DNA of 64,000 nucleotides, taken from the NCBI GenBank assembly GCA_963780425.1, contig CAWABZ010000004.1, positions 20,714 to 84,713 of the forward strand. The letters are read 5' to 3'. Shown here piece by piece: positions 35,099-61,949 of this stretch. Position numbers and translations under genes: made by a program. The notes below the pieces were generated by a model. It searched no databases. It saw nothing but the letters and a program-made list of their open reading frames with translations, and was not told the origin of the DNA. Source of the DNA: an uncultured Chloroflexia bacterium. GTDB taxonomy: Bacteria; Chloroflexota; Limnocylindria; Limnocylindrales; CSP1-4. The first letter of the stretch is position 1, and each line of letters opens with the position of its first letter.

Positions 35099-37092
35099 AG
35101 GTAGGACCGCCGAAAGTCGGGTCGCCGATCCCGAAGGTGCGCGGCGCCGGATCCCACATGGCTTTCCTGTGGGACAAGAACCTGATGCGGCTGGCCGTGC
35201 TCATCACCGTCCTGGCGGTTCTGGTCGCCCTGAACGGGGTGCGTGGCGTCATCGAGGGCGCGATCTCGGCGATCGGCCTCCTGCCGCTCCTGGCCCTCCA
35301 GATGATGTTCGTGGCCTTCCTGATCATCTTCCAGTTCGTGATCATGTTCTGGTTCCTGTCGCGACCGCGGAAGTACACGACCACACCCGACGACGCCCAG
35401 ATCGACCTCTCGTTCGAGAACTACCGGGGTCAGCCCGACCTCCTCGAGCATGCCAAGAGCACGGTCAGGATCCTGCGCGGCCAGAGCGCGTTCAAGGCGG
35501 CGGGCGGCGAGATGCCGAAGGGCATGCTGCTGTCCGGCCTCCCGGGTACCGGCAAGACGTTCCTGGCAGGCTGCATCGCCGCCGAGGGAAAGCTCCCGTT
35601 CATCTATATCGACGCGTCGTCGTTGCGCGGCATGTTCTGGGGCATGGACGCGCTGATGGTCATGAAGTTGTTCCGTGACGCCCGCGGTCTGGCCCGAAAG
35701 TACGCCGAACCCGGCGAGCGCGGCGTCTGCATCCTGTTCGTCGACGAGCTCGATTCCATCGGTCTCGCGCGCGGAGGACAGGGGACCGGCGTCGGGATGC
35801 CCGGCGGCGTCTTCGGCGGCGGGTCCGGCGGACTCAACACCCTGCTCAACCAGATGGACTCGCTCGGCGACCACGTGGAGGATCGCTGGTTCCACAAGCT
35901 GCTTCGCTGGTTCGGGATCGTCCGCGGACCCGTCAGGAACAAGCCACTCGTGTTCGTGATCGGGGCGACCAACCGCCCCGAGGTCCTGGACTCGGCGTTG
36001 ACGCGACCCGGCCGACTGGATCGCATCCTCGAGGTGTACGCGCCCGATGGCGACGGTCGGCGCGACATCATCACGCACTACCTCGCCAAGAAGCAGCACG
36101 ACCCCGACATCGACATCGATTTCATGATCGGCGACTCGATCGGATGGACCCCGGCGATGATCAAGACGATCATCAACGAGGCACTCGTCTCCGCCCACGA
36201 AGAAGGGCGCGACCGGCTGACCTATCGCGACTGGCTGGCCGCGGCCGACGCCCGGACGCTGGGGCTCAAGCAGCCGATCCGACGGATGCACGAGGACGAC
36301 CGCCGGTCGATCGCGTATCACGAGGCCGGCCACGCCGTGGCCGCCTACTACCTCCAGCCCGAGAACCGGATCATCAAGGCGACGATCATCCGGCGCGGTG
36401 GTGCGCTGGGTGTCGTCCAGCCGCAGCCGCGCGAGGAGCGCTATACCCGCCACGCGCGCCAGTTCGAGACCCAGATCATGACGTTCCTCGGGTCGCGCGC
36501 GGTCGAGGAGGAGATCCTCGAGACGAAGATGACCGGCGCGTCCTCGGACCTGATGGTCGCGTCGTCGATCGCCCTGAGCTACTGCGGCATCTTCGGGATG
36601 GGCTCCGGGCTGCTCGTCATGCCGCCGCAGCAGAACGCGCTTTCCTACCCGATGCCGATCGCCCGGATGGCCGCGTCCCTGCTCGACACGCTGATGATCG
36701 AGACGAAGCGGCTGGTGCGCGAGAAGGAGTACGCCGTCCACGCGGTGGCCGCGGCGCTCCTGGAGAAGGGCGAGCTGATCGGGACCGAGCTGGAAGCCGT
36801 GTTCGAACAGGCGGACGCGCAGAACGCGGATGCGGCCGCGCCGTTCGAGCGCCAGCTCTTCTCGCTGCCGCGCCTGTTCGACGAGCCGGGTCAGGGCGCC
36901 CCGGGCGCAAGCGAATGGCCGGCCGACTCGTCCGGGGCCGCGGCGGCGTCCTGGGAACTGCTCGGCGAGCCCGGCTCGGCGCTCCCGTCGCGAACGTCGT
37001 GGACTCTGTACCTGGACCCCGGTCAGATCCCGCCGGACGACTACCACGCTCCGCCGAAGTTCCGGCCGGGGGATCGCCAGCCCCGCGACTGA
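35095..37092 (+). CDS. FtsH-like membrane AAA+ zinc metalloprotease (M41), atypical paralogue
   Basis: Two N-terminal TMs, GLPGTGKT, ILFVDELD, ATNRPEVLDSALTRPGRLDR, HEAGH, GASSDL. Confidence 0.9.
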   Translation: MKVGPPKVGSPIPKVRGAGSHMAFLWDKNLMRLAVLITVLAVLVALNGVRGVIEGAISAIGLLPLLALQMMFVAFLIIFQFVIMFWFLSRPRKYTTTPDDAQIDLSFENYRGQPDLLEHAKSTVRILRGQSAFKAAGGEMPKGMLLSGLPGTGKTFLAGCIAAEGKLPFIYIDASSLRGMFWGMDALMVMKLFRDARGLARKYAEPGERGVCILFVDELDSIGLARGGQGTGVGMPGGVFGGGSGGLNTLLNQMDSLGDHVEDRWFHKLLRWFGIVRGPVRNKPLVFVIGATNRPEVLDSALTRPGRLDRILEVYAPDGDGRRDIITHYLAKKQHDPDIDIDFMIGDSIGWTPAMIKTIINEALVSAHEEGRDRLTYRDWLAAADARTLGLKQPIRRMHEDDRRSIAYHEAGHAVAAYYLQPENRIIKATIIRRGGALGVVQPQPREERYTRHARQFETQIMTFLGSRAVEEEILETKMTGASSDLMVASSIALSYCGIFGMGSGLLVMPPQQNALSYPMPIARMAASLLDTLMIETKRLVREKEYAVHAVAAALLEKGELIGTELEAVFEQADAQNADAAAPFERQLFSLPRLFDEPGQGAPGASEWPADSSGAAAASWELLGEPGSALPSRTSWTLYLDPGQIPPDDYHAPPKFRPGDRQPRD

Positions 37093-37159
37093 AACCTTTC
37101 GGGCGGCCGAAGGGCGGCCAGGGCCCGCCCTCCGGACGCCGCGCAATCCGGGGAGGCGC

Positions 37160-37220
37160 CCGACCGGGCACATCAGCCGGACGGCGCGCGCCGACCGGGC
37201 CCAATCGCCGGACGGCGCGC
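37160..37220 (+). repeat. Two imperfect ~30-bp tandem repeats
   Basis: CCGACCGGGC(ACATCA/CCAATC)GCCGGACGGCGCGC twice. Confidence 0.7.
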
Positions 37221-37267
37221 AGGTGTCGATAAGTCTGGGTTGAGCGTTGCTCGCCAGAGTCCGCCCT

Positions 37268-38041
37268 ATGGACTCGATGCAGCGGTGCGGCGCCACATTT
37301 CGGGCCGTCCGGATCAAGCGCGGTTGGCGTCAGGTGGACGTCGCTGCGCGAGCCCGCGTGCACCGGTCGGTCGTTTCGGCTGTCGAGCGCGGCCATCTCG
37401 AGCAGGTGTCGATCGGCACGCTCCTCGAGATCGCGCGCGCCCTGGAGATCCAGGTCACGTTCGGCACTCGATGGCGAGCCGGCGATCTCGACCGACTCGT
37501 CAGCGGGCGACATTCTCGGCTTCACGAAGCAGTCGGTGCCTGGTTCGCCACCGCGCTGCCCGACTGGATCCTCGCCCCGGAAGTCTCGTTCTCGATCTTC
37601 GGCGAACGGGGGATCATCGACATCCTGGCCTGGCACCCCGGCCGGCGCGCCCTTCTGGTGATCGAGCTCAAGACCGATCTCGCCGATGTGAACGAGCTGA
37701 TCGGCAGCATGGATCGGCGCCGGCGGCTCGCGTGGGACATCGCCAAGGACCGAGGATGGGAGCCGCTCACCGTCTCGACCTGGGTGCTCGTAGCCGGAGG
37801 ACGGACGAACCGCGCTCGGATCTCCGCGCACAGAACGCTGCTCCGCACGGCATTCCCGGTCGATGGACGGACTGTCGTGGGTTGGTTGCGTCGGCCCGAT
37901 CGGGAGGTCCATGCGTTATCGCTCTGGGATCGGGTGCGTGATGACGGCGGAGGTTCCGGCGAGTTTGCGGCCCGGCATCGGGTGCGGCGAGGCCCGTCTC
38001 GTCGGGCCGACCATGAACTACGCGGATGGCAGCGACCTTAG
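37268..38041 (+). CDS. XRE-type HTH fused to PD-(D/E)XK nuclease-like domain
   Basis: RAVRIKRGWRQVDVAARARVHRSVVSAVERG; EVSFSIFGERGIIDILAW...LLVIELKT. Confidence 0.8.
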   Translation: MDSMQRCGATFRAVRIKRGWRQVDVAARARVHRSVVSAVERGHLEQVSIGTLLEIARALEIQVTFGTRWRAGDLDRLVSGRHSRLHEAVGAWFATALPDWILAPEVSFSIFGERGIIDILAWHPGRRALLVIELKTDLADVNELIGSMDRRRRLAWDIAKDRGWEPLTVSTWVLVAGGRTNRARISAHRTLLRTAFPVDGRTVVGWLRRPDREVHALSLWDRVRDDGGGSGEFAARHRVRRGPSRRADHELRGWQRP

Positions 38042-38196
38042 GTCCGGAACATGTCGGTGAGACCTCGCTCTAGGCCCGCCGACCAGCCATAAGGCCGCTG
38101 TGGATGCGCGATGTGCATGGTCGACGGCGCTGAAGCAGTCGATGGCGGCCCGGAGCTGGACATTGCGTCGCTGTGATGCGCGTACTTCATGGTTGG
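38007..38196 (+). repeat. ~190-bp three-unit palindromic element, copy 1
   Basis: Units of ~36 bp (consensus ~CGACCATG(A/C)AnnnCGCGCATnnCAGCG(A/G)CCTTA(T/G)G) at 38007-38042(+), 38087-38123(-), 38159-38196(-). Confidence 0.8.
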
Positions 38197-38272
38197 GGGG
38201 GACGCCGGGGGGCGGCCGGGATGGCCGGGGCGGTCGGGCCGGTACGCGGGCGGAGCGGGCCGCCACTCCTCC

Positions 38273-39133
38273 CTAGAGGTCGCGCCGCCGCAGCGAGATG
38301 ACCGCCAGGACAAGCACGACCACGATCCACGCCACGCTCCACGCGAGGAACGTCGCGGGCGGTGGCGCGGAAGCGAAGAACGGGTTGGCGTCGGCCGCCT
38401 CCCCGGCACCGCTCATCGCGCCGGCGATGACGACCTGCGGCTCGAGGTTGTAGATCGCCCCCCGCCACAGCCCGTCGCTTGGCAGGAGCCAGCGCGACGC
38501 CTCGGCCGCCGCGACCAGGGGTCCCGCGTCGAAGAATCGCCCGATGCCCGCGAAGACGCCGGCCATCCAGCCCAGGCCGAACAGGACGACGCAGATCGCC
38601 CCACCGGCGATCGCCGGCAGCCGCGTGCTCAGCAGCATCGCGAACGTGAGCAGGACGACCGCCTGGGCCGCCAGGAAGACAACGGCCAGCAATGGCTGCG
38701 GCGGCGTGTAGCCGGACACCAACCGGACCGCCGCGATCTCGAGCAGCCCGGAGCTGGCGGCATAGGCCGCGATCACGACCACGAGACCGAGCCACCGGCC
38801 GACGATCAGGTCGGCTCGACGGATCGGCCTCGCGAGCATGGCGTGTGCCACGCCGGAATCGAGGTCCGCGGCGATCGCCGGCGCCCCGAGGAACGCGGCG
38901 GTCATGGCCAGCACGAAGCTGAACATGAACGCCACGAGGATCTGGACCTGCGAGACCCCGAGCGCGATCTCGAGATCGGACGTCCCGCCGTCGCGCGCGA
39001 GCGTCACGAGTCGCTCGATGCCCCACGTCGTGAGCGCGACGCTGACCACCGTCAGCGCGAACAGGACCGCGAGGATGCGCCGTCGAGCCGTCTCCGCGAC
39101 GGTCAAGCGGGCGATGATCAGGATCGCTCTCAC
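38273..39133 (-). CDS. ABC-2 type transporter permease
   Basis: IARLTVAETARRR, IAADLDSG...LARPIRRADLIVGRWLG, terminal LRRRDL; about 6 TMs. Confidence 0.88.
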   Translation of the reverse strand: MRAILIIARLTVAETARRRILAVLFALTVVSVALTTWGIERLVTLARDGGTSDLEIALGVSQVQILVAFMFSFVLAMTAAFLGAPAIAADLDSGVAHAMLARPIRRADLIVGRWLGLVVVIAAYAASSGLLEIAAVRLVSGYTPPQPLLAVVFLAAQAVVLLTFAMLLSTRLPAIAGGAICVVLFGLGWMAGVFAGIGRFFDAGPLVAAAEASRWLLPSDGLWRGAIYNLEPQVVIAGAMSGAGEAADANPFFASAPPPATFLAWSVAWIVVVLVLAVISLRRRDL

Positions 39134-48203: not shown

Positions 48204-48379
48204 CGAGGCGATCCTTGCGGACAGCCAGGGGCTTGCGGCGTGGGTCGCGGGATTCTTCTGTGCGACGGGCCGGTCAACCGTCGATCGGCGACGCGCCATC
48301 AACGTAAGCACGCCTTGCAGCTGCGCCGGGCCGCCACTCCGCTCCCGTGGGCGGTGGGTGCGCTGGGCCTGCGGGCCGT

Positions 48380-48568
48380 TCATCATGAACAACGCGCATG
48401 ACGGCGGCCTTATGACACTCGGCGGCACGGTCTGACGCCCGTTCGGCCCCTCGAACATGCATATCGCGCCCAGCGAGCGACCTTAGGCGGATCGCGACGC
48501 CCGGCACGGGCCTAGAAGCGACGAAATTGGGCCATAAGGTTGCCGTCATCCGCATTCTTCATGGTCGG
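48380..48568 (-). repeat. ~190-bp three-unit palindromic element, copy 2 (inverted relative to copy 1)
   Basis: Units 48380-48415(+), 48452-48487(+), 48532-48568(-); unit order and spacer lengths mirror 38007-38196. Confidence 0.8.
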
Positions 48569-48650
48569 GATGGTCGGGATGGCCGGGATGGCCGCGATGG
48601 CCGGGATGGTCGGGGTGGCCGGGATGGCCGGGATGGTCGGCATGTCGGGG
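48561..48650 (+). repeat. 9-bp tandem repeat (ATGGYCGGG), about 9-10 units
   Basis: atggtcggg atggtcggg atggccggg atggccgcg atggccggg atggtcggg gtggccggg atggccggg atggtcggc. Confidence 0.92.
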
Positions 48651-61813: not shown

Positions 61814-61949
61814 GGGCCGCGAGCCGGATTGCGCCACGGACGATGCTGGGCGCCACAAGGTCGTCGTGACGCGCGCTATTCACGGTCGGCTTCCGGTCGT
61901 TCCGGCGTCTGATCCGGCGCGTTACGATCGACGGACGAGGAGGTCGTCC

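Follow-up and report, generated by a model that had tools for sequence, protein, structure and literature searches.

The locus described here raises the question of whether a gene for a predicted nuclease and the palindromic repeat into which its reading frame runs are working partners or chance neighbours. Both lie in a 64,000-nucleotide stretch of DNA (hereafter the window; contig C4:20714-84713) from the assembly of an uncultured Chloroflexia bacterium (G000; 3.6 Mb, 70% G+C, 86% complete); throughout the text, G and L numbers denote the genomes of relatives and their loci, and C numbers denote contigs. The gene (37268..38041, plus strand) encodes a protein with an XRE-type helix-turn-helix (HTH) and a PD-(D/E)XK nuclease domain, and the repeat (38004..38199) is a foldback built of three related units. 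A first-pass annotation of the same DNA had proposed that the two form a repetitive extragenic palindrome (REP)-like mobile system lacking a RAYT transposase. Our study identified units of the repeat beside the orthologous gene in most of the species compared and found the same arrangement in a second gene subfamily with a unit type of its own. Weighing these results with the evidence presented below, we lean slightly towards a REPIN/RAYT-like partnership built on a protein of restriction-endonuclease fold, which would bind and mobilise the repeats.

The core of the element, which we designate type 1, was delimited at 38004..38199 from its units, its fold and its related copies, and it comprises unit A, a spacer, unit B, a second spacer and unit C. 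Unit A, the left arm (38007..38042, plus strand), was detected by nhmmer with an E value of 1e-11, and all 36/36 of its bases are identical in the relative G146. The middle unit B is an ATGCA variant (38087..38123, minus strand; E 6e-4, and 6e-7 with a wider model), and unit C, the right arm (38159..38196, minus strand; E 3e-9), is the inverted partner of A. The units read exactly as the first-pass annotation had quoted them. The arms A and C measure 39 nucleotides (nt), are 77% complementary and stand 112 nt apart, and between A and B there is an inverted match of 20 nt at 80%. With as many as three mismatches allowed, unit A occurs once in the window against 0 expected from 100 shuffles, and the reversed unit pattern occurs in 0 of the 131 genomes of our genus set. 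A stretch of 206 nt folds into a long hairpin, with folding z values of -4.4 and -3.8 relative to shuffled sequences on the two strands; a search of positions 36900-38500 against Rfam 15, on both strands and with E up to 10, returned six chance-level matches, none of them near a gathering score. A G-rich short tandem tail (38196..38242; 11 bp x 2.3 and 9 bp x 3.8 in TRF) follows unit C and re-uses its terminal bases. Public sequencing runs, all available as contigs, each matched at most 32% of the sampled words; the four compared with the window contained no contig bridging the element, and a low-depth contig joint that omits 37315-37998, with 30 letters on one side, was not used as evidence.

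Because conservation is limited to the units, further copies had to be searched for with pattern and profile methods (nhmmer and a covariance model). The unit profile gave 28 matches in G000 (E up to 0.2), which resolve into 11 elements with two arms, 181-198 bp long, together with a solo right arm and a weak solo unit. The element is a dispersed, REP-like intergenic family with ~12 loci in this genome, as had been supposed. Its units follow the consensus CGACCATGAA-nn-ACGCG-S-AT-S-nnn-GC-n-ACCTTATGGCG, and the majority of the elements have the ATGCA variant as their middle unit. The spacers are unrelated among elements, save in one subfamily of three formed by the gene-adjacent copy, C1:65555-65752 (92%) and C9:285133-285329 (70%). 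According to a crude call of open reading frames (ORFs) and of G+C content at third codon positions (GC3), all copies are intergenic: ~6 stand between convergent genes, 5 stand between tandem genes, directly after a gene end, and 1-2 are ambiguous. Most copies carry short tandem tails after the right arm that repeat the terminal bases of the element, and further tails consist of repeated stretches of 11-31 bp that include these bases.

Two other members of the family lie in the window. The first-pass annotation had noted a gene-free copy 10 kb away, and there is indeed an element with two inverted units and a middle unit at 48377..48570 (C4:69090-69283), with no HTH gene beside it and at a site that is syntenic in G146 and G074; the likeness to the gene-adjacent copy is confined to the units, since this is a diverged member that does not share its spacers. 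Its terminal nonamer ATGGTCGGG is reiterated in a 9-bp x 9.3 tandem array at 48561..48644 (TRF score 119). The second is the weak solo unit, on the minus strand at 61848..61890 (C4:82561-82603), with an nhmmer E of 0.019 and a covariance-model E of 1.8e-7. As a separate observation, the better-conserved arm, together with the visible tail, is on the right in contig coordinates in 10 of the 11 two-armed elements (contigs C1, C4, C6, C8, C9, C15, C16 and C17 of G000), which is unexpected because the orientation of contigs should be arbitrary. We also considered whether the units might be small ORFs, given their ATG frame of the form M-K/N-x-A-D/H...L-M-A, and rejected this reading: the ORFs that start from either arm stop after 0-100 codons in unrelated sequence, unit B contains a 1-nt indel, and two units carry CTG.

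BLAST with the 201-nt element in 61 genomes (60 relatives and G000) matched G000, where all the matches were members of the family, and gave one weak match in G033. In G000 we found no full-length insertion sequence (IS) with the units at its ends; units pair only at ~190 bp, and no pair encloses a gene. The absence of a RAYT stated by the first-pass annotation is borne out for the six repeat-bearing genomes searched (G000, G146, G074, G021, G134 and G133, with assemblies 82-91% complete), where PF01797 was found in 0/6, while it was found in 6/14 control genomes.

Special attention was given to the position of the units relative to the gene in other species. We compared 18 species carrying the closest gene subfamily (61-100% identity) and scored a unit as adjacent when it stood within 300 bp of the gene; the earliest detections used a profile built from the G000 units alone, and the subsequent ones used a profile that excluded the loci under test. 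Type-1 units were adjacent in 13/18 species, at the 3' side in ten (G000, G146, G074, G134, G136, G035, G077, G068, G113 and G085), at the 5' side in G133 and G024, and at both sides in G021. The first-pass annotation had based the association on one locus and had named enrichment beside homologous genes as the result to look for; the association now extends well beyond that locus, and the enrichment was found. In the genus-wide search (unit threshold E <= 0.01), type-1 units were present in 33/131 genomes, with 2-35 matches per ~3-Mb genome and the larger populations in G146 (35), G000 (27), G074 (26), G021 (15), G035 (12) and G077 (10). In G085 (3.0 Mb), the only two unit matches that this search reported both abut the gene. 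In G136, G077 and G035 (L042, L044 and L045, compared with L036 of G000), the gene is inverted relative to the neighbouring ABC-2 permease gene, and the element is still 3' of it. Recombination between flanking foldbacks, such as those present on both sides in G021, would explain these flips of orientation.

These observations bear directly on the explanation that the elements are generic REP-like hairpins, acting as terminators or stabilising messenger RNA and spread by some other process, with the gene incidental or hitch-hiking. Their intergenic placement directly after gene ends and their strong hairpins on either strand are what such a role would lead one to expect, and it would also accommodate the facts that only ~1/12 of the copies stands beside the gene and that repeats without an intact cognate gene exist. 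However, the adjacency holds at 13/18 loci, persists through inversion of the gene, recurs in the second subfamily with its own unit and greatly exceeds the expectation from 2-35 units per 3 Mb; moreover, it is the sequence of the units that is conserved and not their pairing. For these reasons, we regard the generic-hairpin explanation as improbable.

The second gene subfamily (53-62% identity) occupies other loci, where a three-unit foldback stands before the gene and often also after it. Its type-2 units differ from type 1 in their 5' half and read TGGCAGAA-n-TTGC ... GGACCGTTATGGC. Using a profile derived from six loci, we found type-2 units beside 9/15 loci of this subfamily, often on both sides, and a genus-wide model search added five gene loci that had not contributed to the training (G143, G007, two in G092, and contig C2 of G021). 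Type-2 units are present in 51/131 genomes and are expanded in G150 (33), G143 (31), G147 (27) and G105 (22); the species rich in type 1 and those rich in type 2 are different ones. In G000, type-2 copies were located at C8:572849-573014 and C16:30599-30760, and the type-2-like gene at C8:120488-121154 is frameshifted. At L076, L079, L081 and L082 (G136, G128, G133 and G088), the DNA immediately upstream of the type-2 element and gene contains dense clusters of words resembling DnaA boxes (TGTCCAC / TCATCCAC / TTTCCAC), and on this basis the type-2 subfamily may stand beside a replication origin.

The gene family as a whole (E <= 1e-40 in the genus) was found in 86/131 genomes, and in 23/24 of those of high quality. 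In a sample of 401 genomes from the phylum (E <= 1e-25), the protein family was present in 35, all belonging to two families of the window's class (22/23 and 12/16 genomes) and carrying 1-6 copies each, and was not found in the remaining families of the sample; the source names of close protein homologues are Candidatus Limnocylindrales or Chloroflexota. For the repeat, an exact-pattern scan of one genome per prokaryote species returned 24 stretches, 8 of them in Limnocylindrales or uncultured Chloroflexia, and the only two stretches with an inverted pair were both among those 8, the 16 others being single matches in unrelated taxa.

What kind of protein does the gene encode? The ORF can be read from TTG 37247 (264 residues) or from ATG 37268 (257 residues), and the latter is the likely start codon because conservation with the G146 orthologue begins there. 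An XRE-type HTH domain is predicted for residues 1-69 (37268..37474; Pfam HTH_3/HTH_31), where HTH_3 (PF01381) passed its gathering threshold with 37.6 bits against a cut-off of 23, over residues 19-69 of the 264-residue ORF. The VIA structural search with the full-length model (pLDDT 83.5) gave Z values of 10-11.6 to HigA2, C.AhdI and HipB and was swamped by HTH matches; the C-terminal domain (residues 70-226, 37475..37945) was therefore folded separately, yielding a model with pLDDT 88, pTM 0.84 and the H-E-E-E-H-E order of secondary structure. Searched against 48,161 representative chains, this model matched best NucS (2vld; Z 8.6, root-mean-square deviation 3.2, 103 residues aligned), followed among the named top rows by an XisH-like protein (2okf, Z 8.4), McrC, restriction enzymes, Can2/Card1, the restriction-like endonuclease (RLE) of R2 (9dou, Z 7.5) and Hjc; the named top rows are PD-(D/E)XK nucleases. 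The sequence contains the corresponding catalytic D...(D/E)-x-K motif as D118 and E133-L-K135, and E105, D118 (in IIDILAW) and E133 and K135 (in VIELK) show no variation across 32 homologues with 57-90% identity. Because the structural matches are uniform and the motif is in place, the predicted domain is assigned to the PD-(D/E)XK fold, even though the Z values are moderate. The identity given by the first-pass annotation thus holds for both domains. With the whole model, Foldseek retrieved SduA, the nuclease of the Shedu defence system, at the top, and BstEII, while NCBIfam and PADLOC gave matches only to the HTH domain or chance-level fragments.

The ratio of nonsynonymous to synonymous substitution rates (dN/dS) between the gene and six orthologues is 0.10-0.15, with a dS of 0.27 between G000 and G146, and by this measure the gene is under purifying selection. 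Together with the invariant catalytic residues and the predicted PD-(D/E)XK fold, these values indicate that the protein is functional. The GC3 of the gene is 0.77, compared with 0.89-0.93 in neighbouring genes. With regard to expression, a sediment metatranscriptome library contains two contigs of 151 nt that match a relative's gene at 37370-37520 and 37558-37706, with 4-12 differences each; they lie inside the gene and give at most a weak hint of expression, since carry-over of DNA is possible.

The end of the gene lies within the repeat. The syntenic orthologue of G146 shares 93% of its amino acids, and homology to orthologues stops at about residue 243, after which a non-conserved tail (37997..38041) runs into unit A and ends at TAG 38039-38041; unit A therefore supplies the stop codon, as had been reported. 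In G146, a 1-nt indel shifts the stop to the TGA of CCATGA inside the corresponding unit, and the tails of many metagenomic homologues (57-90% identity) are the unit translated in two frames (...DHE... and ...RP-stop). Since the tails read the unit in two frames and the stop of G146 has shifted within it, the apparent fusion of gene and unit is better described as an ancient abutment than as a coding fusion, and the variable C-termini of the family are artefacts of reading into the repeat.

The constraints acting on the units were examined within elements and between species. Within 19 elements, some of them orthologous, the similarity between the two arms of an element is 27.5 of 39 columns, compared with 26.9 between elements, and no covariation between arms was found beyond the family consensus; likewise, a possible CCATGA/TTATGG stem within the unit showed no compensatory change in 52 units. 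That arms are no more alike within an element than between elements fits a trans-acting factor and not a constraint on the hairpin alone, and the maintenance of one consensus in all units, shifting with the gene subfamily, is easier to reconcile with a protein that recognises them in trans than with a role of structure alone. Between G000 and G146, identity is 88.6% in the units (964/1088), 80.7% in the spacers (835/1035) and 74.3% in the 150-bp flanks (2442/3287, with one locus badly aligned). At a dS of 0.27, the spacers appear to evolve almost neutrally, with the units changing at roughly half their rate and hence under mild constraint.

The same data would suit a different explanation, in which the elements are cis or regulon sites that the host maintains, the HTH protein acts in transcription or chromosome structure, the adjacent element is autoregulatory, and the nuclease-fold domain serves oligomerisation or another role such as defence. 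Units that are conserved as sequence, without covariation of partners and more slowly changing than spacers, agree with a regulon; 11/12 copies are positionally stable between species, a conserved motif precedes the genes, and the top Foldseek match is SduA. On the other hand, by the crude ORF call, roughly half of the copies are bounded by convergent genes and have no promoter to regulate, and the catalytic residues are invariant. An insertion with target duplication and losses have occurred, copy number varies widely among close species, and the tandem tails are left unaccounted for. We consider the regulon explanation unlikely.

The history of individual copies was reconstructed by comparing loci between species. 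Beyond the loci of G000, G146 has five more. At L061, an insert of ~395 bp stands between convergent genes in G146, and these genes abut in G000, G074, G021, G134 and G089, so that the empty sites suggested by the first-pass annotation as something to look for exist in five species. The insert consists of 70 bp, the core and a 165-bp tail, and a ~41-bp target beginning CGACC stands on either side of it in diverged copies; from this comparison, L061 reads as a clean, well-polarised insertion in G146. L062a is a probable insertion, being empty in G000 and G021, but in G134 an element stands beside the same right flank. L054 and L059 are deletions in G000, the outgroups having 1.5-2.2 kb at L059, and L057 is a decayed remnant in G000. 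Stepwise decay was observed at L085 (G000 C15:~102272), where G000 has lost the 1.5-2.2 kb of G134, G021, G133 and G089; 107 bp are left in G074, and 559 bp, with an element among them, in G146. Identity between the gene-adjacent copy and the C1-type copies of G000, G146 and G074 is 91-92%, compared with 82% to its positional orthologue in G146. Such relationships are not tree-like and point to one copy converting or replacing another, or to a fast G146 branch; they suggest slow turnover.

The order of FtsH-like, HTH and ABC-2 genes persists across species down to ~74% identity, and on this syntenic evidence the gene is vertically inherited at one locus and does not jump. The first-pass annotation had inferred an autonomous and a non-autonomous member of a mobile pair; the part concerning an autonomous jumping gene is contradicted by its fixed FtsH-like/ABC-2 locus and by purifying selection. 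This also affects the explanation that the gene and its flanking elements constitute a selfish cassette of ~1.2 kb, comparable to a homing endonuclease or a composite foldback transposon, of which the solo elements would be internally deleted derivatives, or MITEs (miniature inverted-repeat transposable elements). The bracketing of the gene in G021 and at many type-2 loci is suggestive of a cassette, and so are the 1-6 family members per genome, some of them frameshifted, the GC3 below that of the neighbours and the flips of gene orientation between species. Nevertheless, the type-1 gene keeps its FtsH-like and ABC-2 neighbours and diverges with them, no pair of occupied and empty sites for a whole cassette was found, and the solos share no spacer with the gene-adjacent copy, one subfamily excepted. 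Of the explanations considered here, the cassette is the least probable.

Several points weigh against a partnership between protein and repeat, and they are presented together so that its standing can be judged. Units are not adjacent in 5/18 orthologues (G034, G110, G026, G069 and G023), the related species are non-independent observations of adjacency, and only ~1/12 of the G000 elements adjoins the gene. Five paralogous matches in G000 (by tblastn: two broken or degenerate, at C8:120488-121154 and C5:185696-186046; two intact, at C5:79098-79868 and C13:122955-123437; and one distant) have no units nearby, and their 3' flanks are unique in the genome. In G150, which has 33 type-2 units, the cognate gene is split over two frames, and in G147, which has 27, only a distant family member was found. 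Such movement as there is must be very slow, 11/12 G000 loci being syntenic in G146 and the twelfth ambiguous, and for three of the five loci present in G146 alone, deletion or decay in G000 is the better explanation. One clean and one probable insertion make slender direct evidence of mobility; the donor of the G146 insert was not found in G146 (91% complete), G000 or G074, and the target duplications, of ~7 bp (L062a), ~10-13 bp (L059) and ~41 bp (L061), are unlike those of known transposases. A hydrolytic nuclease alone cannot join DNA.

Taking these points into account, the REPIN/RAYT-like partnership that we favour would have two parts. One is the vertically inherited gene for the XRE-HTH and PD-(D/E)XK protein. 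The other is the set of foldbacks of ~150-200 bp, with two inverted units of ~36-40 nt, a usual middle unit, unconserved spacers and a tandem tail, of which one stays by the gene while the other copies are intergenic, mostly just after genes. The HTH, probably acting as a dimer, would recognise the sequence of the units in both arms, and nicking or cutting at or near the element would fall to the nuclease domain. Repair or copying by the host might then occasionally seed or convert copies, and the outcome would be reiterated ends of the elements and target duplications that vary in length. Binding, cleavage and a causal part in the spread are thus all attributed to the protein by inference. 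A bolder formulation is also conceivable: that this is a new class of intragenomic replicator, in which a protein of XRE HTH and restriction-endonuclease fold, in place of an HUH, DDE or serine/tyrosine recombinase, propagates foldbacks of ~195 bp, with units of ~40 bp, by cutting and repair, in convergence with REPIN-RAYT and in at least two co-diverged lineages of gene and repeat, inherited vertically across both families that have it. We offer it tentatively and consider it doubtful. A second architecture of the REPIN-RAYT kind, found in an uncultured, unrelated phylum and based on a nuclease of another fold, would point to repeated evolution of this lifestyle without HUH chemistry, and a protein of 257 residues with a site of 36-40 bp would be a small, defined pair for studying how a nuclease seeds repeats. 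For annotation, the family accounts for a recurrent intergenic repeat in these metagenome-assembled genomes from soil. A narrow full-text search of the literature found no paper on such a system.

The surroundings of the gene complete the description of the locus. The first-pass annotation had placed it between convergent operons; in fact, the upstream FtsH-like gene is co-directional with it, and only the downstream ABC-2 permease gene converges. It had also noted 30-bp repeats upstream with a weak similarity to unit B. Direct repeats of ~31 bp starting CCGACC are real (37115..37220; 31 bp x 2.1 at 37156-37220 in TRF, with a weaker third copy at 37115-37144), while the similarity to unit B was not upheld, as the unit model does not match them. 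G146 holds a single copy of this repeat, and in two soil metagenome runs, each from a separate study, contigs join 37103 to 37209, skipping 37104-37208 (105 bp, with the three ~31-bp repeats); the tandem duplication near the gene is therefore polymorphic. Between these repeats and the gene, a GATAAG-containing motif (37223..37246, plus strand), ~25-45 nt before the start codon, is conserved in G146, and a similar motif precedes the genes of the second subfamily, which makes it a candidate promoter or operator.

It remains to compare the system with those already known. The foldback repeats of bacteria derived from the ends of insertion sequences include MITEs and the Correia, ERIC, BOX and RUP elements. 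The elements described here resemble them in being short, non-coding and intergenic, often at the 3' ends of genes, with terminal inverted repeats and long hairpins; they differ from MITEs in that no full-length IS with these ends was found in G000, the length of the duplication is not fixed and the companion gene does not multiply. The catalytic fold of the protein also occurs in TnsA of Tn7 and in PD-(D/E)XK homing endonucleases, which act on mobile or excisable DNA, and it is shared with the R2 RLE and the XisH-like protein (fdxN element), with modest Z values and unrelated sequences. The nucleases of the TnsA, R2 and XisH group partner a DDE transposase, a reverse transcriptase or a recombinase, none of which is encoded beside the gene here. 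In IS200/IS605, in PATE and in the guide RNAs of TnpB/IscB, a structured element overlaps the 3' end of a gene and copies without the gene occur elsewhere; unlike IS200/IS605, the present locus has no TnpA or TnpB and no Rfam family.

The closest likeness is to REPIN-RAYT of Gammaproteobacteria. In the published account, REPINs are inverted doublets with a conserved unit and a variable spacer in extragenic space; the gene for the RAYT (REP-associated tyrosine transposase) is described as single-copy and vertically inherited, staying within a single extragenic space with repeats of its own type on its flanks, with slow duplication, and the whole as an exceptional repeat population that persists vertically with a single-copy enzyme that does not jump (10.1101/2021.07.10.451892). 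Inverted doublets, extragenic placement, a vertical single gene flanked by units, group-specific types and slow duplication are common to both, and the behaviour of the gene studied here, syntenic and under purifying selection, matches the RAYT pattern and not that of an IS with its MITEs. The differences concern the elements and, above all, the enzyme. A REP unit is by itself a short hairpin-forming palindrome, which is recognised in single-stranded form. Here the units measure 36-40 nt and are not clearly self-palindromic, and the elements, of ~195 bp, have a usual middle unit, a tandem tail and a long target duplication and number tens of copies at most. The enzyme combines XRE-HTH and PD-(D/E)XK domains in place of HUH/Y1, in genomes where PF01797 was found in none of six; it fails the defining feature of the family, and the system is likened to REPIN-RAYT in its working without being a member of it.

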